From Acidobacteriota bacterium (GTDB lineage: Bacteria > Acidobacteriota > Blastocatellia > RBC074): DNA of 64,000 bases. The stretch spans positions 2,621 to 66,620 of the forward strand of contig JAFDVI010000013.1 of the NCBI GenBank assembly GCA_018269055.1, given 5' to 3'. Positions 39,428 to 54,759 of the stretch are shown here, piece by piece (the stretch's first letter is position 1; each line of letters opens with the position of its first letter). The translations under genes were made by a program, and so were the position numbers. Under the pieces are notes generated by a model. That model was not told where the DNA came from, did no database searches, and worked only from the letters and a program-made list of their open reading frames with translations.

Positions 39428-39551
39428 ACCATCCGTATTGACCATTCTTTGTCGCATGGATGAATCCTGAAGATTGAAGCTCGCCGTTTGCCTTTTAGCT
39501 GCTCCGGTCAATGGGATTTCATTGTTGTCGTGTCCCCCTTCGGAGGTGCTT

Positions 39552-40637
39552 ATGAAGTGGTTCTCACGCCAGCCCTTTCGGTTTTGTCTAGGGTGGTTTC
39601 TGTCTTTCTTTGCCTTGGCCTGCTTTGTCCAAATCGGTTTTTCCCAACAATCAACTAATCCCAACAACCCGTCCCGCAACGCCATCGTCTCGCATTCCAT
39701 TCGCGGAAAGATTTTTATGCCATCTGGCAATTTGCCTGAACAGCGTTTACGCGTGGTGCTGGAACACAGCGCGGGCGGAATTGTGTCTGAAACCTTTTCT
39801 GATACCGCGGGCAACTTTGAATTCCGTGGATTGACCAATAACACCTATCGCGTCACCGTTCCCACGGACCACTACACCTACGAAACCGGCCAGGAAAGCG
39901 TCGAAGTCTTCGGCAATTATGCCCATACCGTCAGCGTTCAAATTTACCTCAAGGAAAAAGACAACAACCTGAATGTCATGACAAAAGACAAGCTGCTTTC
40001 ACCGGCTGACATTCAGGAAGTGCCGAAGAACGCTAAAAAAGCCTATGACCAGGGAGTAAAACTGGCGCGAGATAAACAGCCGGAAAAAGCCAGCGCAAAG
40101 TTTCAGGAGGCGTTACAGATTTTTCCCGAATACCTGAATGCTTTGAATAAACTCGGCGAACAGATGGCCATATTGAACAAACCCGATCTGGCCGAAGCCA
40201 ATTTCGAGCGAGCCATCGCCATCAATCCGAAATTCGCTTCGCCTTATATCAATTCCGGAATCGTGCTGGTCAGCCAGAAGCGTTACGACGAAGCAATCTC
40301 GACGCTGGAAACCGGCAACCGGCTGGATGACAGTTTCCCGATGGGCCATTTGAATTTGGGAATCGCCTTGATGTCCAAAACGCCTGCGGACTTTGATCAA
40401 GCAGAAAAGGAATTGATGCGAGTCCTTGATTCGAATAAGAAAGAGTTTGCCTATGTCCGAAAACTGCTCTTCAACCTCAACATTCGCCAGCGTAAATACG
40501 ACAAAGCCGTCGCGCAATTGGAAGCTTACTTGAAAGAATTCCCGGATGCCCCCGATTCACAAGAAGTCAAACTGACCTTGGAAAAAGTGAAAAAGGCGAT
40601 GGCTCAGCAGGCAGCGGCAAACCAAAAGTCACAATAG
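39552..40637 (+). CDS. Exported TPR protein with N-terminal carboxypeptidase-regulatory-like beta domain
   Basis: Signal peptide; SDTAGNFEFRGL...YRVTV; several TPRs; GGAGG RBS before ATG 39552. Confidence 0.82.
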   Translation: MKWFSRQPFRFCLGWFLSFFALACFVQIGFSQQSTNPNNPSRNAIVSHSIRGKIFMPSGNLPEQRLRVVLEHSAGGIVSETFSDTAGNFEFRGLTNNTYRVTVPTDHYTYETGQESVEVFGNYAHTVSVQIYLKEKDNNLNVMTKDKLLSPADIQEVPKNAKKAYDQGVKLARDKQPEKASAKFQEALQIFPEYLNALNKLGEQMAILNKPDLAEANFERAIAINPKFASPYINSGIVLVSQKRYDEAISTLETGNRLDDSFPMGHLNLGIALMSKTPADFDQAEKELMRVLDSNKKEFAYVRKLLFNLNIRQRKYDKAVAQLEAYLKEFPDAPDSQEVKLTLEKVKKAMAQQAAANQKSQ

Positions 40638-40858
40638 TTTCATATTTCATTTTGCCAAAGCGGTAAACGCGTTCGGGTGGTGAAGTCCATTACAGTTTGA
40701 AACCGATCTTTCGGTTACGACTCCTTACTTTAGGTGGACGAAATTTTCTGAATCATCTATCCTCTTTCCGTGAAAGCTAAAGCATAGGGACGCGGTTTAT
40801 TCCTGCCGAAATTCAAGACACATTTTCGAGTAACATTCAGTTTCGATATAAATTCGGA

Positions 40859-41467
40859 GTGGAACCTATTTCAATGATGGGCGAAACCGGTACGTTGAAT
40901 GCACTGAACGATCAGGAAGTTACACCGGAAAGATTGCAAGCCTTTCTCGAATGGCTGGCATCTGGCGCGAACATCCGTGAGGAAGTATATGAAGCTGCGC
41001 GCCGACGGCTGATCCTCTTTTTTGCAGGGCGCAAATGTCTTGACCCGGAATCGCTTGCCGACCGAACGCTCGACTTGGCCATGCGCAAACTGACCGAGAT
41101 TCCCGCTGAGGCCAAACCTCTGGCTTATCTGATTGGCATCGCCAAAAATATCTACCGCGACGAATTGCGTGCAGCGCATAAGGCCGAAGCCTTTCTGTCA
41201 ACTCGCTCTGCAACGCCTTCACAATCTGAACCCGAAACCGAGAGCCGGCATTCCTGCCTGGAAAAATGCTTGGCTGAATTGCCTGCAAACGAACGCGCCC
41301 TGGTGTTGGGGTATTACAGCGAATCCCGGCAAGCCAAAATAGATAAACGCAAACAACTTGCCGATCTGTACGGATTGACGCTGAACGCCTTGCGAAACCG
41401 TGTTTTTCGGCTCAACCAGCGGTTGGTGTTGTGCGTCACAGCGTGTTTGGAAAATTCTACGGCGTGA
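40859..41467 (+). CDS. ECF-type sigma-70 factor
   Basis: Region 2-like YEAARRRLILFF..DPESLADRT..AYLIGIAKN; region 4 CLEKCLAELP..ERALVL.YY..LADLYGLTLNALRNRVFRL. Confidence 0.85.
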   Translation: MEPISMMGETGTLNALNDQEVTPERLQAFLEWLASGANIREEVYEAARRRLILFFAGRKCLDPESLADRTLDLAMRKLTEIPAEAKPLAYLIGIAKNIYRDELRAAHKAEAFLSTRSATPSQSEPETESRHSCLEKCLAELPANERALVLGYYSESRQAKIDKRKQLADLYGLTLNALRNRVFRLNQRLVLCVTACLENSTA

Positions 41468-41520
41468 TATTTCACCATTTCCCGCCATATATGAATGCGC
41501 GGGGTAGAAAGTCCGCATAA

Positions 41521-44500
41521 ATGTCTTTTATCACCGACACAGAACTCCGGTCGTATCTGTTGGGAAACCTGGCGGATGCGCCGCGCCAAGAAATTGAAGA
41601 TACGTTGCTCGTTAGCGACGAAGGCTCGTTGCGCTTGGAACTGGCCGAAGAAGATTTGATTGAAGATTTTCTGGACGGCCAACTCGACGCGGAACAAACC
41701 GCATTGTTCCAGAGCCAGTTTCTTTGCACTTCCGCACGCAAAGAAAAACTGGCGTATTTGCAAGCCATTCGTCAGATCGCCATTCGGCATCCGCAGCCGG
41801 AACAGGCCCCCGGCAACGTTGTCAGCTTTCCCGCGCCGGAAACGCGGCGGGGGATTTTCGTGGGTATGAATCGTTCAAGTTACTTAAAACTTGCGGCGGC
41901 AATTTTGCTTCTCAGCAGCGCGGGATTTTTGGTTTGGCGGTATGCGTTTCGTTCACCGGAAAGCGCTTCGCTCGTGGCCCTCAACCGAGCGTATGCGGGT
42001 GGACGAACGCTCGAAACGCGCATTGGCGGGTTCGATTACGCGCCTTATGCACCCACGCGCGGCGCGGACGAGGCGGACGCCAATGCGCGCATCCTGCGCG
42101 AACGCGCCGAACGCATTGTGCTGGATGCATATGCCGAACATCCGACTGCAGCCAATCGGCACGCGCTGGGAAAATACTATCTGGCAGATAAGCAGTTCGA
42201 TAAAGCCATTGAACAATTCAACGCTGCGCTCAAAGAAACTCCAACCGTGGCCGAATTGCACAACGATCTGGGCGCAGCTTTACTGGAAAAATCCAAATAC
42301 GAAAAGCGTAATGACCAGCCCGGCGACAGCTTGCAACACATGGCCGCAAGTCTGGAATCCATTGAACAAGCCCTGAAGCTGCAACCAAATTATCCAGCCG
42401 CAGTGTTCAATCGCGCGCTCTGTTTGCAGGAAATGTACCTGCCGCGCCAGGCCATTGAAGAGTGGAAAAAGTATCTACAACTCGACAACAACTCGAAATG
42501 GGCAGACGAAGCGCGCCGCCGATTGGCGGAACTCGAAAAAGCGCCGTCGAACATCTCAAAAAGTGATGATGAACTTTACCAGGAATACCTGAAAGACCCA
42601 GGGAACGAAGAACGCACCTTCGATCTGTTTTGCCAAGCCTATTCCACCACCGGCAACGGCATTACCGAACGGTTGATTGACGATTATCTGGCTGCTCAAA
42701 GCCACGGAGATGCCGCCGCAACCGACAAGCTGAATCTGCTGGAACAACTCGGCAAACTGATTTACCAGCGCACGACGGATTCTTACGTCCGCGATGTGGC
42801 GCGGTATTACCGGCAGTTACCTCCGCGTTTGTTACCCAAGCTCATCGAAGCTCGCCAGCATTTGAACCGGGGGCGCGACCTCAGATCAACTTCGCAATCC
42901 CAAGCGGCGTCGAATTACGAACAAGCTATCTCCCTGTTCCGCCAAGCCCAGGATTCGTGCGAAGTGAAAATGACTACCTGCTTGCTCGCCCGTTCGCATT
43001 TGCGGCAATCGAACCTGGATAAGAGCCAAGAATTGTTTGCTCCATTGGCGGGCGCGGGAAATCCCTATCTTTGGTTGCGGTGTGAAAGTTTGAATGGCCT
43101 GGGAGAACTGTTTAAGGTCAAAGCTCTGTCAGAGGAGGCGATTCGCGCAAATCAATCCGCACTTTCCATTGCTCAGCAAATTGGCAACACGAACCAGAGG
43201 GCCACAAACTTATATTCCCTGGCTGTAAAATACTTTGAGCTCGGCAATTTTGAGCGATCATTTGTTTATCAACAACAAGCCATCGAGACGGTTAGTCAAA
43301 ATGCAGCGAGCCATCAACAACACTGGGCAACCAATGCTCAAGCGGCGTTCCAATTATTTTCGAATGGGTTTTACGCAGCGGCTCTTGCCTATCAACAAGA
43401 AGCCTTAGCGATTGAGTTGACTACAAAACGCCAACTCCAGCTTTCACGCACTTTCAGCCACTTGGGCGTAATGCTAGGGAAAGTAATGCGCTTTGCTGAG
43501 GCAATCCCGGTGGCCCAAGAAGCAGTCAATATCGGGATTCGTCTGGGGAATGAAAGATTGGGAATTGAAATCCAGGCTTATAGCGGTTTGTTTCTTGCCG
43601 ATTTGCAACGTGAATCCGGGAACCAATTGGCAGCGTTCCAAAGCTATGAACGGGTGCTCAGCCTGAACAATCAACTGGGTATTCTCAGGTATGACTTTGA
43701 AGCTTACCGAGGTAAAGCCCTGGCAGAAATTGCTTTGGGATGGACCGAACAAGCAAAACGAGATTTAGCCACGGCACTGGCTATCTTTGAACAGAACCGC
43801 AATCAAATCGTGGCTGATAACGAACGTACGACCTATCTTGATAAGGAATACGAGACTTATGACGCCGCGATCAGTTTGGCTTATGCCGAAAATCCGCAAG
43901 CGGCTTTTGATTTGTCGGAACGAGGTCGTGCCCTTACTTTGCTTGAGGTCATGAAGGGCGGGCAGGGTGTAAATGCCAACAGAGCCGAAAAAGAATTCAT
44001 ATCCTTGAATCGCACCCAAAAGACCTCTCTACAGATGGTGCAGCAGCGAATCCCTCCGGGGACGAGTTTGCTGGAGTTCACCTGCTTGTCTGATCGTCTA
44101 ATTGTTTTTGGAGTTTCGGCAACCAATTTTACCCACAACCAGAATCTGATTTCGCTGTCCCAGCTTGAACAGAAAGTACAGGCTTTCAGGCGTGCAGTGT
44201 CGGACGCTTCCACAGGTGATGACCAGACCAAGATCCTCGCCGCTGAGCTATATCAAATTTTGATCGAACCGCTCGAACCCTTTTTATCCGACGAACAAAC
44301 TGTTTGTGTGGTTCCGGACAAAATCTTGCATTATTTGCCCTTTGCTGCGCTTTTTTCCGCTCGGCAGCAAAAATATCTGATTGAAACCCGCGCGCTTGTT
44401 ACGGCACCCAGCGCCTCAGTTTTCTTACTCTGTCTTGAACATGCTCGGCAACAAGGGATAGGCAAAAACGGCCAGGTGTTGGCGGTAGGAAATCCGCAGT

Positions 44501-45099
44501 TTGATCCGATTGCCTATCCGCAGTTGTCTGATCTATCAGCCGCAACCGATGAAGCAAATGAAGTTGCCGCCAAATACATCCACCGCAAAGTACTTACCGC
44601 TGAACAAGCCACTGAAGAGGCGGTAAAATCGGCAATCAAACGGGCCTCAATTATTCACTTGGCCACCCACGGCGTGATTGACGAGCGATCGTGGGCGAAT
44701 TCCAGATTGGTGTTGGCCAAGTCTTCTGCAGAAAACGGGGAAGACGGTGCGCTGCGCGCCTACGAAATTGCCCAAATGCGATTGCCAAATGCCCGGCTGG
44801 TTGTGCTATCGGCCTGCCAGTCGGGTGTGGAACGCGTTTATCGGGGCGAAGGCATGATCGGATTAGGCCGAGCCTTTCTCAGCGCGGGCGCGACCAGCGT
44901 CGTCGCCAGTTTTTGGGCCGTAGATTCAGACGTTTCGGCGGTTTTGATGACCGATTTTCACAAACAACTAAAGGCGTATTCCGTGTCTCAGGCGTTGAGG
45001 CACGCGCAATTGAACATGCTGCATAGCGCTAACGTTCAGCATCGTAATCCATATTACTGGGCGGCCTTCAGCGTTTTTGGCGGGGACGTGTTGCTGTAA
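41521..45099 (+). CDS. Anti-sigma-like N-terminus, TM, TPR array, CHAT (caspase-like) domain fusion
   Basis: LRSYLLG.L..EIED.L...EEDLIEDFLDG.L anti-sigma-like segment; TM LAAAILLLSSAGFLVW; TPRs; CHAT with VPDKILHYLPFAAL, IHLATHG, VLSACQSG, AFLSAGA..VVASFW.V.S, PYYWAAF. Confidence 0.92.
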   Translation: MSFITDTELRSYLLGNLADAPRQEIEDTLLVSDEGSLRLELAEEDLIEDFLDGQLDAEQTALFQSQFLCTSARKEKLAYLQAIRQIAIRHPQPEQAPGNVVSFPAPETRRGIFVGMNRSSYLKLAAAILLLSSAGFLVWRYAFRSPESASLVALNRAYAGGRTLETRIGGFDYAPYAPTRGADEADANARILRERAERIVLDAYAEHPTAANRHALGKYYLADKQFDKAIEQFNAALKETPTVAELHNDLGAALLEKSKYEKRNDQPGDSLQHMAASLESIEQALKLQPNYPAAVFNRALCLQEMYLPRQAIEEWKKYLQLDNNSKWADEARRRLAELEKAPSNISKSDDELYQEYLKDPGNEERTFDLFCQAYSTTGNGITERLIDDYLAAQSHGDAAATDKLNLLEQLGKLIYQRTTDSYVRDVARYYRQLPPRLLPKLIEARQHLNRGRDLRSTSQSQAASNYEQAISLFRQAQDSCEVKMTTCLLARSHLRQSNLDKSQELFAPLAGAGNPYLWLRCESLNGLGELFKVKALSEEAIRANQSALSIAQQIGNTNQRATNLYSLAVKYFELGNFERSFVYQQQAIETVSQNAASHQQHWATNAQAAFQLFSNGFYAAALAYQQEALAIELTTKRQLQLSRTFSHLGVMLGKVMRFAEAIPVAQEAVNIGIRLGNERLGIEIQAYSGLFLADLQRESGNQLAAFQSYERVLSLNNQLGILRYDFEAYRGKALAEIALGWTEQAKRDLATALAIFEQNRNQIVADNERTTYLDKEYETYDAAISLAYAENPQAAFDLSERGRALTLLEVMKGGQGVNANRAEKEFISLNRTQKTSLQMVQQRIPPGTSLLEFTCLSDRLIVFGVSATNFTHNQNLISLSQLEQKVQAFRRAVSDASTGDDQTKILAAELYQILIEPLEPFLSDEQTVCVVPDKILHYLPFAALFSARQQKYLIETRALVTAPSASVFLLCLEHARQQGIGKNGQVLAVGNPQFDPIAYPQLSDLSAATDEANEVAAKYIHRKVLTAEQATEEAVKSAIKRASIIHLATHGVIDERSWANSRLVLAKSSAENGEDGALRAYEIAQMRLPNARLVVLSACQSGVERVYRGEGMIGLGRAFLSAGATSVVASFWAVDSDVSAVLMTDFHKQLKAYSVSQALRHAQLNMLHSANVQHRNPYYWAAFSVFGGDVLL

Positions 45100-45116: not shown

Positions 45117-46118
45117 ATGAAGAACATCACAAACCAAATACCAAGTGAAAATGTCAAAGCTAAGGTTATCGTAGAAGGACTTTTTGTATTTTGTATCAAT
45201 GAAGAAGCAAAGCAGGCCGAATTTGGAGTGTACGATTTTGCCGACGATCACGAGTTTTCAATTAAAATATCAAAGAAACCTTTTGATATTACGGCAGACC
45301 CAATTAGAGAAATTATTGAGCTAACTTCCGATCCAATAATCGCTTATTTGAATAACCTTTCAATTGGGATAAAAGGGCGCGCATCAGATGTCCAGATTTA
45401 CCAAAACGAGAATCTCGAAGAAAGTTACTTTTTCATTAAAGCTAGGGAGGAAGAAATAGAAACCGAGGATGAAAATGGTAACTCAACCGGTTATGAGAAG
45501 GATTTTCGCTGGGTGCTTGATCTCGAAAGTAGTCGCTTCCACAATGAAAGACTCAATATAGTGCCTGGTATGTTAGAGCGAAAAATTATCATCAGCAACG
45601 GAGTCATTTCCACGCACGATACTGGGGGAAGGATTGTAAAGAATACATTCCCAAGCATAGCCAAGCAAAAACCTCCTCTGGATAGCTGCTACGTTAGCTA
45701 TCAGCTAGCAATTGATTTGATTGCTGATCCGCTAGAGGAGTCAATTGTAATTTCATATAGAGACCAAAATGCTACTCGGCGAAATGAGATATGTCTAGTT
45801 CCATCTGACGAGTATTATTATGAAATAAAACTGGATAATAACTGCAAGCGAGCTAAGCCCAACGCACGATTCAGCGATTTTCAGCATTATTACAATGTTT
45901 TTGCGAATGTTACCGCAGATAACAGATTCGATTTTGAAAAATTTGATGGTAGCGGTACAAAATCAATTCCTTGCGATCTTGTCTTTCTTGGGCAACACCA
46001 GAGTCTAGACGAAATCAAGGAGGGCCTTGTAGAGATGAGCGATCAGGCTATAACTGTTACTGAGGCAAACGATTCTTCTCCTACGTTACAGCTTGAATGT
46101 CAAAAAGAAGTTCATTGA
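45117..46118 (+). CDS. Hypothetical protein (333 aa), CHAT-associated, AT-rich
   Basis: Long ORF 17 nt after the CHAT stop with AGGAAG RBS; beta-rich; no signal peptide; no named family recognised. Confidence 0.8.
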   Translation: MKNITNQIPSENVKAKVIVEGLFVFCINEEAKQAEFGVYDFADDHEFSIKISKKPFDITADPIREIIELTSDPIIAYLNNLSIGIKGRASDVQIYQNENLEESYFFIKAREEEIETEDENGNSTGYEKDFRWVLDLESSRFHNERLNIVPGMLERKIIISNGVISTHDTGGRIVKNTFPSIAKQKPPLDSCYVSYQLAIDLIADPLEESIVISYRDQNATRRNEICLVPSDEYYYEIKLDNNCKRAKPNARFSDFQHYYNVFANVTADNRFDFEKFDGSGTKSIPCDLVFLGQHQSLDEIKEGLVEMSDQAITVTEANDSSPTLQLECQKEVH

Positions 46119-46211: not shown

Positions 46212-47612
46212 ATGGATAAAGTTTACTATCACAGACAAAACAAAGAAGAAGATTGTGGCCCAGCTTCGGTTCAGATTGTGTTAAATTACTTGGATGACAA
46301 TTTGCCAGCAGTTGGTAAATTTGACCAACAAAGCAAACTGAAAAGTAATGCGAATCTTTCATCTCATAACGCGCCTTGGGATTGGAATAGGTATAATAAC
46401 TGGAAATGGCAACCTGACGAAATTCGGGGGATGCTGGCTAAATATCTTAATTCATCGGCGAGTGCTGAAATATACCCTACAATCTCCGCTTCGGGTAAGG
46501 TGTATAGTGTTGATCCAATTACTGGTAAATCTGGTTATAAAAGTAAATTATCCGATCATTTGAATCAGTCAAAATATCCAATCGTTCCGATACATGGCAC
46601 TTTTCACTACAATGACAAGCTCGTTCCGCCGTCCATATACTCTGATATCGTTGAGAATCTTTTATTGAATAACGATGGAAAAATTGAAGACTCTAAATAT
46701 ATTGGGCACTGGATTGTGCTGACTGAAAATCAAAATGATAGCTTTATCGGCTTCGACCCTTGGCTGCCTAAATTGTTGGGTGCCCCTGAAATAAGTTCAA
46801 CTCATACAAAGAGCGTTGCTGGCAAAGGAGGAACGGATTGTGCGTGCTTTGAAGTTTATATCCACGTTAGCGGAGACAAAGATGCCTTAGGTCTAAATTT
46901 TCCAGCAGAGTCTCGTGTGGCGATCGTATGGAATGTGTCGAATTCGACAGGACGGCGCGTGCCTCCAACCAAGACAGGCAATCTCCCTCAATTTCCCCAA
47001 ACGGGTAAATGCATCAATAAGCCATTTGATGCCCAATCGCTTTTTGATCAGATGACGGCGTTTGGTCTTCGGAAACAACCCCCTTGCAACGTTTATTTGG
47101 AGAAGTCCACGATTGTTGCGCCTAATGTAAAGCCCAAGTTTAATCTTGGTATGCCAAGGCTTGTTCGTCGTTTGGATGCATTTTGTAATGATTACTACTT
47201 GGTGCCTTTTTTAAAATTGAATAGGCCTGGAGAAACTGCTCCTGGGGCAAGTACCATTTTGGCTCGTGTGGATGCTCCTTCTCTGCTTTACCTTGACGCA
47301 CTGTTCTATTCCGAAAATCCATTGCTCATTGATGAAACTACGATCCCGATGCCTCCGCCATTACCCGCCATTCTTACGCAAAAAGATATAATAAATCGAT
47401 ATGTCCCTGATCAGCTAATCAAGAAGGGAAAACGCCATTGGATAAAACCCTTTCAAGACCAGATCAAAGATATAAGTAATCCGCCAGAAATGGTTTGGCT
47501 GCCCTGCAAACAATCTATATCGCCGTTTTTCCCATTTTTTGTTATTACTGCTGGATCTGAAAAGTTTTTGGTGCGGCTCGATGGGGCAGTGTTTGAAAAG
47601 CTGAGTTATTGA
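46212..47612 (+). CDS. Papain-like C39-family cysteine peptidase with uncharacterised C-terminal domain
   Basis: Q-x5-CGPAS (HRQNKEEDCGPAS), GHWIVL, GFDPW give a Cys/His/Asp triad; GAGGG RBS; no signal peptide. Confidence 0.72.
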   Translation: MDKVYYHRQNKEEDCGPASVQIVLNYLDDNLPAVGKFDQQSKLKSNANLSSHNAPWDWNRYNNWKWQPDEIRGMLAKYLNSSASAEIYPTISASGKVYSVDPITGKSGYKSKLSDHLNQSKYPIVPIHGTFHYNDKLVPPSIYSDIVENLLLNNDGKIEDSKYIGHWIVLTENQNDSFIGFDPWLPKLLGAPEISSTHTKSVAGKGGTDCACFEVYIHVSGDKDALGLNFPAESRVAIVWNVSNSTGRRVPPTKTGNLPQFPQTGKCINKPFDAQSLFDQMTAFGLRKQPPCNVYLEKSTIVAPNVKPKFNLGMPRLVRRLDAFCNDYYLVPFLKLNRPGETAPGASTILARVDAPSLLYLDALFYSENPLLIDETTIPMPPPLPAILTQKDIINRYVPDQLIKKGKRHWIKPFQDQIKDISNPPEMVWLPCKQSISPFFPFFVITAGSEKFLVRLDGAVFEKLSY

Positions 47613-49773: not shown

Positions 49774-52700
49774 ATGAATACACATATAACGCCCACACGA
49801 ATTGTTTTCCTGAACCGAAACTGGGAACGGTTTCGATTGGTTCTTGCCAGCAGTTTTGTAATGCTGGCCGCGGTCTTAACGTGGCAGGTCTCGGCGCGAT
49901 TTTCCGCTTCGGCGAAATCGAATTCGCTGGCCGCGAACTCTGCGACCTCGATTCCCGCTGCGCCTGCGGCAGCGATGCAAGGCGGCTGCAACAACTGTTG
50001 CGGTTCATGGAGCCAGAAATCCAGCACGGGGCCATCTGCCCGCGACATTCACGCAATGGCTTATGCGCAAGCTTGCAATCGCGTCGTGCTGTTTGGTGGC
50101 CGCGCAGCGGGTGGTTTTCCGCCTGCCAACGTCACGGATGATACTTGGGAATGGAATGGCAACACCATGACCTGGACGCAATTCTTCCCGGCGACACGGC
50201 CAGGGCCACGCGGTCAGCACGCGATGGTATATGACGCGGCGCGCAATGAAATCGTGCTCTTCGGCGGATTCAATCAAAACTTTGTTGGGCTGAATGACAC
50301 TTGGGTGTATAGCTGCGCCACGCATACCTGGACGCAGAAATTTCCGGCCACGTCGCCTTCGATCCGGCACGGGCACGCGATGGCCTACGATCCGAACAAA
50401 CAGCTTGTCGTGATGTATGGCGGCGGCAGCAACAAACAAGACACCTGGACGTGGGACGGAACGAATTGGGTGGAGATCATCGGCGCAAACCAGCCGGGCA
50501 TTCGCCACGAACATGCCATGGCCTTTGACGGAACGCGCATCATTTTGTTTGGCGGGTCGAAAAACGCAGGCTATGCGGACAACGACACCTGGGATTTGAC
50601 GCTGACTTCGCCGAGCGCGGGAACCTGGACGATGATCGCTCCCAATGGTAGCGGCCCAAATAAACGCCAGCGTCATGCGATGGCGTATGACCCCGGTTGT
50701 CGCAAAGTGATTTTATTCGGCGGGTGGAGCGACATTGCAACTTACGCCGACGACACCTGGGAATGGCGGCGAGACACATTGTCGTGGTGTCAAACTTCAG
50801 TGCCGACACCGCCGTCGCCAGCGCGCCAATTTTCAGCAATGGCGTATGACGGAAAAGGCGTGATTATGAATGGCGGACTGAATAGCTCACTCGCGCAAAT
50901 TCAGGACACCTGGCGATTTGCCTGCAACCGCGCGTACACCTATCGCGCCGGATTGATGGACGATTTCGCCTTGCCCACCGATCCGACCTCGCCAACCGCG
51001 GCATTTATGGCAAACGTTGACGCGTTTTATAGCACTCCGCCGAAGATGGATTTTGACGAACCGACGACGAATAAATTCCTGCTTCATTCGTTTACCGGAT
51101 TGCCGACCAACATCGTCCGAGCAGAATTGGAAGTGCGGGCGCAGCCGAACGGCGGAGCTTCCAACGATTCAATCCATTTGGATTTCCCGCCGTTTAACGC
51201 TCCTTCATTTACGTGGGGGAAAAACTTTTTCGCGCTGCATCCCGGCGGAACGTGGGATCCGGGGCAGGGCGCGTATACCTTCACCCTGGATTTGTGCAAT
51301 TTGCCCGCTGGCGGCGCAGGGCAGCCGACAAACCTGCTTGGCCTGCTGAATGCGAATCAGTCACTCCACATCATGATTCAGGATGACACCAGCGTGGATT
51401 ACATCAAGTTGCGCGTGTGGTCGTGCCCACCGCGCAGGTATCACGGCGGTTTGCCCGTGGAATCGCTGGGGCAAGCACAACTGAGCGAGGACGCGAACGG
51501 CAATCTGTTGATCGGGGACATCGGCGTCAGCGGCAACGACGGAGCGACCTTCCAGGTCGGCGAAACGAGAGGCGCTTCGATCAAGATGGTGGATACGCTT
51601 TCGTCGCTGCCCAACGGCAGTTATGTCGAAGCGCGCGGGATCGGACGAGTTGGCGGCACGCCCAACAGTCCAGCTAGCAGCATGCGCATAGCGATGACAA
51701 ACACTGGTGCTGAACTGACGCCGAATTTCAGTGCGCTTGGCGCTACGACGTTTCACGTTATCCTGTACAACGACGGGAACACCGTGTTCAGCCAGGGAGG
51801 GTTGAGCGGCAATGCCGTTAGTGTGCCCGCCGCTGCCGTTGCGCCTCTTCTGCAATTCGGCGGGTCAGGAAACATCGTCGGTATGGAAGACATGTCCGGT
51901 CTCGGTATCATCATTACCGAAGACGTCCTCCTGCGTGTGAATGGGCAGGACATTGGTACCGGAGACACGCTGGTCTTTGCGCCCGAAAATCCCACGCAGT
52001 CCTTCGATCTGCTGACGAACTTCCAATTCGGCGGGGCGGGCGTTTCGACGCTGCGCGCGGTGTTGGGAAATATAACCTGTTGCGGTTTCTCCGGTTCCGC
52101 CTCTAATACGTCGCAGTTCCAGGTGGGTGGCAACGCACAACTGGAACCATTTGTCGGTGGCGTCAGTGTGACGGGCATCGGTTCCAGCGGGCAGGATGGC
52201 GTAACAATAAACCTGCGCAAGTCGCAGAGCTTCGGCATCACTTTTGATCCCCTTGATCCAATGTCCATTGCGCCGGTCGGAGCTTCGCTGCAAATCAGCA
52301 CGTCGCACATTCTCAATGTGCTGCCGCCGCCTCCGCCGCGCAACGACAACCTCTCGCTGACCGCAACCAAGCCCATCATTCCGCCGATCTTTCCGGAGAC
52401 GTATAGAGTCGCGGCGAATTTTTCGGAATTGGGAGCGACTTCACTGCATGTAACGGCGTTCAATGGCGCGACGCAAGTTGCTGAGATGACGAACTTTACT
52501 GGGGAAGTCTTGGTCTCAAAACGGCCATTAAAATTTAGTTTCATCGATTTGGCCACGTTGGGATATCAACTGGATTTCCCCAGCGGCGCGCAGGTCAAAT
52601 TTGGACCTTGCCCGCCTGCTCCGTGTGACCAGGGATTCACCATCACATCGCTGCGCGTCCAGCCGCAGACCACAAACGTGACGGTTTCATACTTTACGAA

Positions 52701-54759
52701 TGTGAGTCTGACGGCGATTGATCTGCCGGAATTCACAATCACCGGTATGACGATGGTTCCGTTCTGCAACAGCACGATTTCGGTGTCGCCGGGTTCGTTG
52801 CCGCTTGCCAGAGTCAATCAAGCCTACACTCAGCAACTTACCGCGGGCGGAGGCTTGGGAACATACCGCTTTAACATCACTTCCGGGTCGTTGACTCCGG
52901 GGTTGAGCCTGAACCGTGTGACCGGCGTGATTTCGGGAACGCCGACTGTGGATGGATCTGCGACGTTCACGGTGACGGCGACGGATGACAACGGATGCAC
53001 AGGCAGCCAAGCCTACACACTCAATGCGATTATCTGTCCAACCATCACGGTGAATCCGGCAACGGCTGCCAACGGGACTGTTGGCACGTCGTATAGCCAG
53101 ACATTCACGGGTTCTGGCGGACTCGCGCCATACTCGTTTGCTCGCGTCACGGGGACACTGCCTCCGGGTTTGACGCTGAATGCAAACAACGGCCTGTTGT
53201 CCGGCACACCTACGCAAGCAGGCACGTTCAACTTCACCGTCGAAGCGACGGATGTCCTTGGCTGCACAGGCAATCGGGGCTATTCGGTGGTCATTAACCC
53301 GGTGTGTCCCGCCATCACCGTCAACCCGGCAACCAGTCCCAATGGATTTGTCGGCACGGCTTACAGCCAGACCTTCACGGCTTCTGGCGGAACCGGTCCG
53401 TATACCTTCGCTCGCATCACCGGCACGCTGCCTCCGGGCTTGACGCTGAGTGGGGCCACCGGCCTGTTGTCCGGCACGCCGACCACAGCGGGCACATATA
53501 CCTTCACGGTGGAGGCGACAGCCGCCAATGGCTGCACTGGAACGCAACCTTACACGGTCGTCATTTCCGGCAACGGATTGATGTTCTATCCGCTGGCGGC
53601 TCCGGTGCGATTTTTGGATACGCGGCCAGCGCAGACAGGCTGTTTGACGCCGGGAACTCCGATTGCCGGGGGAACCAGCTTCACGTTGGGAGGCGCAGGA
53701 TTCTGCGGTGTTCCTTCGGTGGCCAGAGCGGTGATGGGGAACATCACGGTCGTGACTCCTGCGGCCAATGGATTCCTGACCTTGTTTCCCAGCGGCGCTA
53801 CACAACCAACGGCGGCCAATACCAACTTCATTTCGGGCGAGGTGTTGAACAACGTCTTTACTGTAGGGTTGGGAGCCGCCGATGGCGCGTTCAAGATATT
53901 CGCTTCGACAACGGTGCATGTCGTGGTAGATGTGACGGGGTACTTCGCTCCGCCGCAACCCGCGCCCGCAACGGGCTTGTACTTCCATCCGTTGCCGACC
54001 CCGATTCGGCTGGAAGACACACGCGTCGGGTTGTCCGCCTGCTTTACACCTGGAACGCCTTTGCCGGGCGGAGTGGACACGACGCATCAAGGGACAACGA
54101 CCTGCAACGGCGTGACCATTCCTTCGGTGGCCAGAGCGATCATCGGCAACATCACAGTTGTTGCTCCTCTGGCCAACGGATTCATCACGGTGTTTCCGGG
54201 AGACACGACCCGGCCATTGGCTTCCAGCGGAAATTACAGGGCAAACACTGTCTTGAACTCACCGTTTATGGTGGGTTTGTCTTCAACGGGGCAGTTCAAG
54301 GTCTATTCCGTGGCACAAACGGATGTGGTGATAGATGTTTCCGGATATTTCAGTCCTGAACCCGTCGACGTAAACGGAACCGGATTGCTGTTTACGCCGA
54401 TTGTTCCGTCGCGCTTGCAAGACACGCGTCCAGGCCAAGCGGCTTGCTTCAATCTGGGCACCCCATTGCCCAGCGGCATGGATGTGACCCAACCTGCCGC
54501 CGGTTCCTGCACCATCGCCAGCACAGCCAGAGCGATTATGGGAAACGTCACTGTCGTGACTCCTGCGGCACAGGGGTTCATCACGTTCTGGCCAAGCAAC
54601 ATTCCCAGGCCGCTGATTGCCACCTCGAACTTCCAGACGAGCCGAAACTTCAACCGCTTTTTCACGGTCGGGCTGGGGCCAGCCGACGGCGCATTCAAGA
54701 TGTTTTCGCTGGCAATGCCCCACCTCGTGGTTGACGTGTCGGGATACTTCGCGCCGTAA
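49774..54759 (+). CDS. 1661-aa secreted modular protein: Kelch propeller, unknown beta domains, three putative-Ig (He_PIG) domains, three C-terminal repeats
   Basis: Signal/TM; repeats of R..HAMAYD...LFGG...DTWxW; three GSLPPGLTL..G.LSGTPT..G..FTV.ATD units; three P.PxRxxDTR...A.A.GN.TVV.P...GF.T.FP...FxVGL...F.....HVVVDV.GYF units. Confidence 0.9.
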   Translation: MNTHITPTRIVFLNRNWERFRLVLASSFVMLAAVLTWQVSARFSASAKSNSLAANSATSIPAAPAAAMQGGCNNCCGSWSQKSSTGPSARDIHAMAYAQACNRVVLFGGRAAGGFPPANVTDDTWEWNGNTMTWTQFFPATRPGPRGQHAMVYDAARNEIVLFGGFNQNFVGLNDTWVYSCATHTWTQKFPATSPSIRHGHAMAYDPNKQLVVMYGGGSNKQDTWTWDGTNWVEIIGANQPGIRHEHAMAFDGTRIILFGGSKNAGYADNDTWDLTLTSPSAGTWTMIAPNGSGPNKRQRHAMAYDPGCRKVILFGGWSDIATYADDTWEWRRDTLSWCQTSVPTPPSPARQFSAMAYDGKGVIMNGGLNSSLAQIQDTWRFACNRAYTYRAGLMDDFALPTDPTSPTAAFMANVDAFYSTPPKMDFDEPTTNKFLLHSFTGLPTNIVRAELEVRAQPNGGASNDSIHLDFPPFNAPSFTWGKNFFALHPGGTWDPGQGAYTFTLDLCNLPAGGAGQPTNLLGLLNANQSLHIMIQDDTSVDYIKLRVWSCPPRRYHGGLPVESLGQAQLSEDANGNLLIGDIGVSGNDGATFQVGETRGASIKMVDTLSSLPNGSYVEARGIGRVGGTPNSPASSMRIAMTNTGAELTPNFSALGATTFHVILYNDGNTVFSQGGLSGNAVSVPAAAVAPLLQFGGSGNIVGMEDMSGLGIIITEDVLLRVNGQDIGTGDTLVFAPENPTQSFDLLTNFQFGGAGVSTLRAVLGNITCCGFSGSASNTSQFQVGGNAQLEPFVGGVSVTGIGSSGQDGVTINLRKSQSFGITFDPLDPMSIAPVGASLQISTSHILNVLPPPPPRNDNLSLTATKPIIPPIFPETYRVAANFSELGATSLHVTAFNGATQVAEMTNFTGEVLVSKRPLKFSFIDLATLGYQLDFPSGAQVKFGPCPPAPCDQGFTITSLRVQPQTTNVTVSYFTNVSLTAIDLPEFTITGMTMVPFCNSTISVSPGSLPLARVNQAYTQQLTAGGGLGTYRFNITSGSLTPGLSLNRVTGVISGTPTVDGSATFTVTATDDNGCTGSQAYTLNAIICPTITVNPATAANGTVGTSYSQTFTGSGGLAPYSFARVTGTLPPGLTLNANNGLLSGTPTQAGTFNFTVEATDVLGCTGNRGYSVVINPVCPAITVNPATSPNGFVGTAYSQTFTASGGTGPYTFARITGTLPPGLTLSGATGLLSGTPTTAGTYTFTVEATAANGCTGTQPYTVVISGNGLMFYPLAAPVRFLDTRPAQTGCLTPGTPIAGGTSFTLGGAGFCGVPSVARAVMGNITVVTPAANGFLTLFPSGATQPTAANTNFISGEVLNNVFTVGLGAADGAFKIFASTTVHVVVDVTGYFAPPQPAPATGLYFHPLPTPIRLEDTRVGLSACFTPGTPLPGGVDTTHQGTTTCNGVTIPSVARAIIGNITVVAPLANGFITVFPGDTTRPLASSGNYRANTVLNSPFMVGLSSTGQFKVYSVAQTDVVIDVSGYFSPEPVDVNGTGLLFTPIVPSRLQDTRPGQAACFNLGTPLPSGMDVTQPAAGSCTIASTARAIMGNVTVVTPAAQGFITFWPSNIPRPLIATSNFQTSRNFNRFFTVGLGPADGAFKMFSLAMPHLVVDVSGYFAP

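Follow-up and report, generated by a model that had tools for sequence, protein, structure and literature searches.

We describe a sigma factor module encoded in a 64,000-nucleotide stretch of an Acidobacteriota genome (GenBank assembly GCA_018269055.1, contig JAFDVI010000013.1, positions 2,621 to 66,620 of the forward strand; hereafter "the window", in whose own coordinates positions are given). In this stretch, a gene for a sigma factor of the extracytoplasmic function (ECF) type is followed on the same strand, after 53 nucleotides, by a gene for a 1192-residue protein that joins an anti-sigma-like N-terminal domain, a single transmembrane helix, an array of tetratricopeptide repeats (TPR), and a caspase-like CHAT protease domain. 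The protein is a remote homolog of DdvA, an anti-sigma factor of Myxococcus xanthus that is bound to the membrane, and has the same body plan. This analogy makes it reasonably probable that the locus encodes a module of the DdvS/DdvA type, in which the ECF sigma factor would be held by a membrane anti-sigma factor with an extracytoplasmic TPR-CHAT protease and released by proteolysis. That the two proteins are a sigma/anti-sigma pair, whatever the mode of release, we consider likely from homology and synteny.

The window locus is a member of a large, coherent family in Acidobacteriota (Blastocatellia/Pyrinomonadaceae), and the sigma/TPR-CHAT pattern is not a chance one. A full-length search returned more than 470 protein clusters at E < 1e-10, nearly all of about 1200 amino acids and with 96-100% coverage; the named clusters come from Blastocatellia, Pyrinomonadaceae, or other Acidobacteriota. 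Scanning one genome per species gave 234 relatives, the best 80 of which all lie in Acidobacteriota metagenome-assembled genomes (MAGs). These 80, plus further contigs carrying relatives of the third gene of the cassette (c2, below), are the loci (L numbers) compared here. Of the 74 loci with enough upstream sequence, 73 have a co-oriented gene of the same sigma family immediately upstream, mostly 20-90 nucleotides away, and this synteny spans 32-82% identity between the CHAT proteins. Several genomes carry two or more paralogs.

Some members depart from the common arrangement. L070 (5037-8321) is a paralog without the N-terminal domain and without the sigma gene; its N-terminus is a positively charged type-II signal anchor, and it keeps c2 downstream. 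L071 has the N-terminal domain and no sigma gene upstream. The paralog L048 (3560-7843) has the same transmembrane-TPR-CHAT body with a canonical HxxxCxxC motif (HCIRCAEC), its own, different Sigma70_r2 gene upstream, and c2 downstream, in a MAG (CAZMXG01) that also carries the orthologous locus L006. Judged by its motif, L048 appears to be a DdvA-type protein with a zinc-associated anti-sigma (ZAS) domain in Acidobacteriota, outside the reported range of DdvA-like proteins. The records of L006, L007, L017, L018, L024, and L048 are labeled "uncultured Heliomicrobium sp."; the loci are clearly Blastocatellia-like, and the bins are probably mislabeled.

The sigma factor and the TPR-CHAT protein

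The longest open reading frame (ORF) of the sigma gene spans 40859-41467 (plus strand, as are all features of the cassette given below) and encodes 202 amino acids from a GTG codon. The real start, according to an alignment of orthologues and to the gene call in the database, is the ATG at 40874, which gives 197 residues. On NCBIfam matches, a family profile, and synteny, we assign the product of 40874..41467 to the ECF-type sigma factors, as a divergent member that has no domains besides sigma2 and sigma4. The window copy itself matches TIGR02989 (E = 2.9e-12) and TIGR02937 (E = 2e-6), both under the cut-off. When 30 relatives are combined in a profile, it aligns over sigma2 and sigma4 to ECF sigma factors of known structure, including SigL (6dv9, E = 2e-6), RpoE (2q1z, E = 1.7e-5), and the SigK, SigE, and SigW entries of the PDB; Pfam detects Sigma70_r4_2 in 24 of these relatives and Sigma70_r2 in 10. 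At about 200 amino acids with sigma2 and sigma4 only, the family has the make-up of ECF (group 4) sigma factors. The main text of the ECF classification paper (PMC7826278) links no Acidobacteria group to CHAT. A separate feature of these proteins is a pair of CxxxC motifs flanking sigma4 (Cys133, Cys137, Cys192, and Cys196 in the 202-residue numbering), of which Cys137 and Cys192 are invariant in the 30 relatives, down to 25% identity. From the sequence, these could form a disulfide or a metal site, either of which would be unusual among ECF sigma factors.

The second gene (41521-45099) encodes the 1192-residue protein. The Pfam CHAT family (PF12770) matches residues 906-1187 with E = 2.2e-71 and 241 bits against a cut-off of 24, and together with the catalytic dyad and the PDB and fold matches it delimits a caspase-fold protease domain at residues of about 837-1192 (44029..45099). 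The catalytic motifs are LATHGVI (His1050, nucleotides 44668-44670) and LSACQSG (Cys1099, nucleotides 44815-44817). Since both residues are invariant in all 87 members of our full-length alignment, from which the column counts below are also taken, we reject the possibility of a dead protease. Pfam TPR families match at about 213-340 and 520-680, and an AlphaFold2 (AF2) model built on 87 homologs (predicted local distance difference test score, pLDDT, 85.2; predicted template-modeling score, pTM, 0.71) renders residues of about 186-812 (42076..43956) as an all-helical repeat with pLDDT mostly above 90. This scaffold and TPR superhelix, predicted to be extracytoplasmic, is presumed to be the sensor.

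Residues 1-89 (41521..41787) make up a predicted cytoplasmic anti-sigma-like domain with a degenerate zf-HC2 motif and five helices in the AF2 model (6-13, 19-29, 33-51, 57-65, and 71-88). Pfam zf-HC2, the anti-sigma zinc-finger family, is matched by 36 of 41 family members, at best with 2.6e-8, and by the window copy with E = 0.0076 over residues 44-64. The HxxxCxxC positions correspond to Q66, T70, and R73 in the window protein; across the family, the first is His in 36 of 87 members, the second is mostly Thr or Ser, and the third is mostly Arg. No Cys or His is conserved family-wide in the domain, and the CHCC zinc site that defines a "ZASD" is absent. Because the zinc-ligand positions are replaced in the window protein and in the family, we read the domain, from its sequence, as a zinc-free derivative of the ZAS fold. 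Class I anti-sigma domains without zinc are common. The domain also has an extra N-terminal helix pair, which repeats the motif YLxGxL-x8-E. A profile of the N-terminal domain gave no significant match among PDB sequences, so its link to anti-sigma domains is traced only through Pfam zf-HC2.

A disordered linker (residues 89-118, AF2 pLDDT below 50) leads to the single transmembrane helix at residues of about 120-142 (41878..41946), which is seen both as a hydropathy peak and as an AF2 helix; no second segment of similar hydrophobicity lies outside the folded domains. Family means of Lys plus Arg are 3.55 on the N-terminal side and 1.94 on the C-terminal side of the helix, which favors a cytoplasmic N-terminus, and an acidic 120-residue domain without a signal peptide precedes this sole membrane helix. 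The charge bias, the lack of a signal peptide, the type-II anchor of L070, and the periplasmic TPR-CHAT of DdvA point to an N-in/C-out topology, with the TPR-CHAT part predicted to be extracytoplasmic.

Just outside the membrane, at residues 150-181 (41968..42063), column counts over the 87 sequences reveal the most conserved non-catalytic stretch of the protein, the juxtamembrane motif GLxALxxAYRxQRPxEARIxGFxYAPxxxTRG, in which A157, R162, R167, and R180 are invariant. A low-confidence AF2 loop (180-185) follows right behind it. We regard residues 150-181 as a candidate cleavage or regulatory segment.

Much of this architecture had been described in the initial annotation of the window, which placed a sigma gene 53 nucleotides upstream of a 1192-residue protein with an anti-sigma-like N-terminus, one transmembrane helix, a TPR array, and an intact CHAT dyad. 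The ORFs lie where it put them, and the zf-HC2 matches, the helix at 120-142, and the Pfam TPR and CHAT matches bear out its domain order. It had allowed that homologs might commonly lack the dyad, and none of the 87 does; the survey of sigma-CHAT synteny over Acidobacteriota genomes that it proposed gave the 73 of 74 loci reported above. Its placement of the N-terminus inside and the protease outside agrees with the topology predicted from the charge bias and the L070 anchor.

DdvS/DdvA and other known systems

The DdvS/DdvA pair of M. xanthus was published in NAR in 2018 and Sci Adv in 2024 (PMC6061681, PMC11506125; structures PDB 8ROT, 8RW5, and 8RLZ), with evidence from genetics, cryo-electron microscopy with the ECF sigma factor, nuclear magnetic resonance of the sigma-bound anti-sigma domain, and dependence on RseP. 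DdvA is a 991-residue single-pass anti-sigma factor with a cytoplasmic zinc-binding three-helix domain and a periplasmic part made of a scaffold, TPR, and a CHAT domain with a His-Cys dyad (PMC11506125). Removal of TPR-CHAT exposes DdvA to RseP. In the model of its authors, signal-induced CHAT self-cleavage in trans, a step that was not observed, is the site-1 event, and a flexible linker outside the membrane is the likely cut site (PMC11506125). Outside Myxococcota, the same authors report a DdvA-like protein in one Comamonas only, and just a subset of the pairs lies near defense genes (PMC11506125).

Searched alone against PDB sequences, the window protein finds DdvA (8rot_B) as its best match (E = 1e-10), covering the catalytic half of CHAT and some of the scaffold. 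Family profiles score TPR proteins, both designed and natural, above DdvA and match no CHAT protein besides it; the profile made from residues 118-345 pairs with DdvA 101-281, its linker and scaffold region. The juxtamembrane motif lies where DdvA has its flexible linker; alone, used as a profile against the PDB, it gave no match and did not recover DdvA with its V129-P140 segment. At the level of fold, Foldseek places DdvA 8rw5 first (E = 8.4e-19; TM score 0.69, normalized to the target; 1074 columns at about 15-16% identity), and 8rw5 and 8rot_A are followed by human and yeast separase and type III-E Csx29. DdvA is best in sequence among CHAT proteins and best in fold, and it is therefore that we call the window protein its remote homolog.

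The two systems share the order of sigma and anti-sigma genes, a small class-I-type anti-sigma domain, one transmembrane helix, and a flexible linker; the scaffold, TPR superhelix, and CHAT domain with its His-Cys dyad also correspond, and the fold of 8ROT and 8RW5 is found in the AF2 model of the window protein. They differ in several respects. Unlike that of DdvA, the window anti-sigma domain has no CHCC zinc site and has the extra N-terminal helix pair, and the window sigma factor belongs to a different, very divergent ECF lineage. The window protein is 200 amino acids longer than DdvA; about 40 extra residues, forming three helices (879-921), lie between the first CHAT strands and the His, and in the model these may or may not be the three-helix motif that DdvA lacks. 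The phylum is Acidobacteriota, and the window copy has no adjoining CBASS or CRISPR genes, whereas ddvS-ddvA does. Finally, c2 and a protease gene are conserved downstream in the window family, and neither is described for DdvA.

Other systems resemble parts of the module. In the type III-E craspase (Csx29, Csx30, Csx31, RpoE), as is proposed here, the activity of a TPR-CHAT protease ends in the release of an ECF-type sigma factor, but Csx29 is cytoplasmic, soluble, bound to Cas7-11, and activated by target RNA, and it cleaves a separate protein, Csx30. The window proteins match the NCBIfam models of Csx29 and of the III-E sigma factor weakly (NF041237, for Csx29, at 33.8 bits against a cut-off of 300), and no cas gene appeared among the ORFs of the window that were examined; on these two grounds we reject membership in type III-E. 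Separase, the second-best fold group, also combines helical repeats with a caspase-fold CHAT-type domain under a dedicated partner, securin, but it is eukaryotic and soluble, has far larger helical regions, scores a TM of about 0.3, and has no tie to transcription. Classical regulated intramembrane proteolysis of anti-sigma factors (RseA-DegS-RseP; the self-cleaving RsgI or FoxR type) likewise works on single-pass proteins from which a bulky outer domain is removed before the site-2 protease acts. Site-1 cleavage in those systems falls to a distinct protease or happens by non-enzymatic autocleavage, whereas the window protein and DdvA have a caspase-fold protease built in. According to reviews, actinobacterial ECF54 has CHAT, carboxypeptidase, and subtilase genes nearby and is described without an anti-sigma factor, unlike the window pair; the window has a CarboxypepD_reg-TPR gene upstream, and sister clades have S8 subtilases downstream.

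The initial annotation knew of no experimental description of this architecture. The M. xanthus pair is exactly such a description (PMC6061681, PMC11506125), and the site-1 self-cleavage model at which the annotation had arrived independently was already in print for DdvA (PMC11506125). The claim of novelty was therefore mistaken: the design of a sigma factor with a transmembrane TPR-CHAT anti-sigma factor is already known, as is the self-cleavage model. The extent proposed for the unit, 40859-45099, takes in the sigma and CHAT genes but stops short of the complete conserved unit, leaving out 45117-46118 and 46212-47612.

c2, the variable protease, and the surrounding DNA

The third gene, c2 (45117..46118), begins 17 nucleotides after the CHAT stop codon and encodes a 333-residue protein. 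When the ORFs of the loci are clustered, 60 of 72 loci, L070 and L048 among them, have a c2 homolog as the next gene after CHAT; on further contigs of sufficient length (L085, L087, L090/L091, and L092), the c2 relatives again follow a CHAT-family gene. Among 1.84 billion representatives, searched exhaustively with HMMER, only 97 c2 relatives turned up. The family has a mean column identity of 16%, with G21, His45, and Cys286 invariant, D129, W132, D135, G162, N241, and Y259 near-invariant, and a variable C-terminal tail behind Cys286. The AF2 model of c2 is all-beta (pLDDT 87.5, pTM 0.85). The sequence has no match in Pfam, PADLOC, or PDB sequences, and the model has none in the PDB or among the viral predicted structures of BFVD (best E = 0.02, TM about 0.1); we treat c2, on its predicted structure, as an orphan fold. 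Sec, lipoprotein, or Tat signals occur in 9 of 76 c2 representatives and in 5 of the 62 copies directly beside a CHAT gene; the window copy has no export signal. A protein encoded in L088 (7001-11317, P0192) has 1438 amino acids and about nine tandem copies of the c2 N-terminal beta domain. It is surrounded by genes for surface proteins with Big, SLH, and CarboxypepD_reg domains, a setting that suggests an extracellular type for this beta domain.

The gene after c2 is a protease slot whose occupant varies. In the window it is c4 (46212..47612), identified from Peptidase_C39_2 and its motifs as a C39-like (papain-fold) cysteine peptidase with a C-terminal region of no assigned function. Its motifs are Cys15 in EEDCGPAS and the His of GHW at residue 165; Peptidase_C39_2 matches with E = 6e-4 in c4 and with 8.8e-7, over the cut-off, in the orthologue L016. 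In close orthologues, c4 is conserved at this position (+2 from the CHAT gene). In other clades the slot holds a protease of another class: S8 subtilase, C14 (caspase-domain), C11 clostripain, or trypsin-like. Downstream sequence of at least 2.5 kb is available for 66 loci, and in 33 of them profiles of these classes detect a protease within 3.5 kb: S8 in 16, C39-like in 10, C14 in 5, C11 in 1, and trypsin-like in 1. Examples besides the window are L028:9853-11376, L045:5328-6242, L072:9737-11164 (C11), and L048:8751-9806 (trypsin-like), and one further c2 relative is followed by a C70/C39_2 peptidase. By eye, the C39-like, the C14, and most of the listed S8 proteins have no obvious N-terminal signal peptide; a hydrophobic N-terminus is seen in a few slot proteases, namely the C11 protein of L072, the S8 protein of L060, and the trypsin-like protein of L048.

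This arrangement recalls bacterial gasdermin operons, in which a protein of about 300 amino acids lies beside proteases of varying class (caspase-like, subtilase, CHAT). The analogy extends to c2 and its variable protease only, and the predicted fold of c2 matches no gasdermin.

Further out, the upstream neighbors are ppk, folE, phoD, a pseudouridine synthase gene, ispH, rpsA, sppA, and HU, and the downstream ones are a DUF218 protein, a glycerol-3-phosphate dehydrogenase-like gene, and an SNF2 helicase; two large secreted proteins are encoded behind the cassette. We reject a defense-island context because these neighbors are housekeeping genes. PADLOC assigned no defense family to c2, c4, or the sigma factor and gave weak, sub-significant matches for the CHAT protein. 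Directly upstream of the sigma gene, at 39474-40637, lies a gene for a secreted-looking protein with CarboxypepD_reg and TPR, which is kept only in the closest orthologues. The segment 44001-48000, which holds the CHAT end, c2, and the C39-like gene, has a G+C content of 0.43-0.46, against about 0.53 for the window. Large He_PIG (Ig-like) proteins are encoded one or two genes past c2 in unrelated loci (window 49774-54759, L086:2112-3953, and L090:4494-6386), and could be members of the regulon; the window copy has 1661 amino acids, with Kelch and He_PIG domains.

Aligning the regions upstream of the sigma gene in close orthologues shows two near-invariant blocks with diverging flanks. The first is promoter-like, TGGACG-N17-TATCCT (40734..40765, plus strand), and the second is GGGACGCGGTTTATTCC (40785-40804). 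Beyond the sigma gene's own upstream region, the 64-kb window holds no further copy of either; with up to 3 mismatches allowed, the first block itself is the sole match there. A search upstream of the relatives at 35% identity did not find it, and no common motif was found upstream of distant sigma genes. A generic scan for promoters and terminators gave the same counts as in shuffled sequences. The 53-nucleotide spacer between the sigma and anti-sigma genes contains a stem-loop, CCCGCCAT...ATGCGCGGGG (41480..41504, plus strand), with no T-run behind it. It folds in 14 of 14 close orthologues (spacer energy -10 to -26 kcal/mol), with one compensatory change (L018) and G-U changes, and might set the ratio of sigma to anti-sigma factor.

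A proposed mechanism and its alternatives

In the mechanism that we favor, the ECF-type sigma factor would be held at the inner membrane by the zinc-free cytoplasmic domain, as homology and synteny suggest. We ascribe the anti-sigma role to this domain because of the synteny at 73 of 74 loci, the zf-HC2 matches, and the joint loss of domain and sigma gene in L070. On the predicted topology, the extracytoplasmic TPR superhelix and the active CHAT protease, in the fold of DdvA, would be sensor and protease. By analogy with DdvA, an outside signal, protein in nature, would activate CHAT and lead to removal of the bulky ectodomain, either by self-cleavage in the juxtamembrane segment or via a partner. 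The TPR-CHAT ectodomain would block the site-2 protease until it is removed, and its removal would need CHAT activity. An RseP-type site-2 protease would then cut the transmembrane helix and free the sigma factor for transcription; of these release steps, only the one by RseP was shown in DdvA. The c2 protein and the interchangeable protease would most likely be substrate, ligand, or regulator of the switch, or its first output. Self-cleavage by CHAT as the site-1 event, the same model as for DdvA, is plausible by that analogy, though we rate self-cleavage of the CHAT domain as less likely than not.

Several points weigh against this mechanism. The window sigma copy is under the cut-off of every curated family, the zinc ligands that matter for DdvA-DdvS binding are missing here, and apart from the block ahead of the sigma gene itself no target promoter was found in the window. 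An export signal is missing from most c2 proteins and most proteases at +2, which may therefore never meet an extracytoplasmic CHAT domain. For DdvA itself, dyad mutants were like wild type in unstimulated cells, and phage Mx4 triggered no cleavage (PMC11506125).

The alternative that fares best keeps the sigma/anti-sigma pair as real and changes the target of the protease. Instead of itself, CHAT would cut a different protein (c2, for instance, or one of the envelope or of an invader), or it would be held by a securin-like partner, and the site-1 cut in the anti-sigma factor would fall to another protease, either the variable one two genes downstream or a general envelope protease. Characterized TPR-CHAT proteases do act in trans on dedicated partners: separase, which securin inhibits, cleaves cohesin, and Csx29 cleaves Csx30. 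Both proteases are fold neighbors of the window protein. In L070, c2 is tied to TPR-CHAT even without the sigma gene and the anti-sigma domain; half of the 66 loci have a protease gene downstream, and some c2 proteins and +2 proteases have Sec, Tat, or lipoprotein signals that would put them beside CHAT. Yet export signals are missing from 67 of 76 c2 copies and from the proteases of the C39-like and C14 classes, and the other half of the loci have no recognizable downstream protease. The most conserved non-catalytic segment, moreover, is the juxtamembrane one with its invariant arginines, which fits a cleavage site used in cis or in a trans-dimer. We consider trans-cleavage possible, though on the unlikely side.

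A more elaborate version of the favored mechanism would give all four genes a place. The variable protease would act as a "sentinel" that processes c2, and processed c2 would be the ligand or substrate that switches on CHAT and so frees the sigma factor. Its logic would be like that of the Spaetzle/Toll cascade, a four-gene relay of a kind not yet described for sigma control. We hold both the sequence of steps and the analogy to be doubtful.

By another analogy, the cassette could be mainly a protease-activated effector, with c2 as a latent toxin, pore-former-like, that is switched on by the neighboring protease or proteases while the sigma part sets the level of expression. A small conserved protein followed by interchangeable proteases (S8, C14, C39-like, C11, trypsin-like) would suit such an effector, and the variety of proteases beside bacterial gasdermins looks alike; the variable tail of c2 after Cys286 and the retention of CHAT-c2 without sigma in L070 would also fit. 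However, the c2 model is unlike gasdermins or any solved or viral predicted structure, PADLOC finds no defense family for c2, c4, or the sigma factor and gives CHAT a weak, sub-significant match only, and the neighbors are housekeeping genes. An effector of this kind is decidedly doubtful.

That the N-terminal domain is no working anti-sigma factor at all, so that TPR-CHAT would work by itself in the envelope as a protease or sensor, with the sigma gene as a co-transcribed, unsequestered regulator, draws on the lost ZAS zinc ligands, the weak zf-HC2 match of the window copy (E = 0.0076), and the missing sigma gene of L071, but is very improbable given how common zinc-free class I anti-sigma domains are, the zf-HC2 matches in 36 of 41 members, the 73 of 74 syntenic loci, the joint loss of domain and sigma gene in L070, and the ZAS-type paralog L048, which shares the body plan.

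What is new, relative to the published M. xanthus pair, is the zinc-free anti-sigma domain, the different ECF lineage, the Acidobacteriota clade, the c2 partner, and the swappable protease. No anti-sigma factor other than DdvA has been characterized that contains its own caspase-like protease, and DdvA's discoverers regarded the type as nearly restricted to myxobacteria. The design is common in a second phylum, one of abundant soil bacteria, whose members the search criteria of the DdvA authors would have missed because of their zinc-free form. The signal, the substrate, or the output of the switch can be sought by testing two specific candidates, c2 and the swappable protease, which could make the activation of a TPR-CHAT anti-sigma factor experimentally tractable. 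If the relay through c2 were true, c2 would be the signal-side component that has so far eluded work on DdvA.

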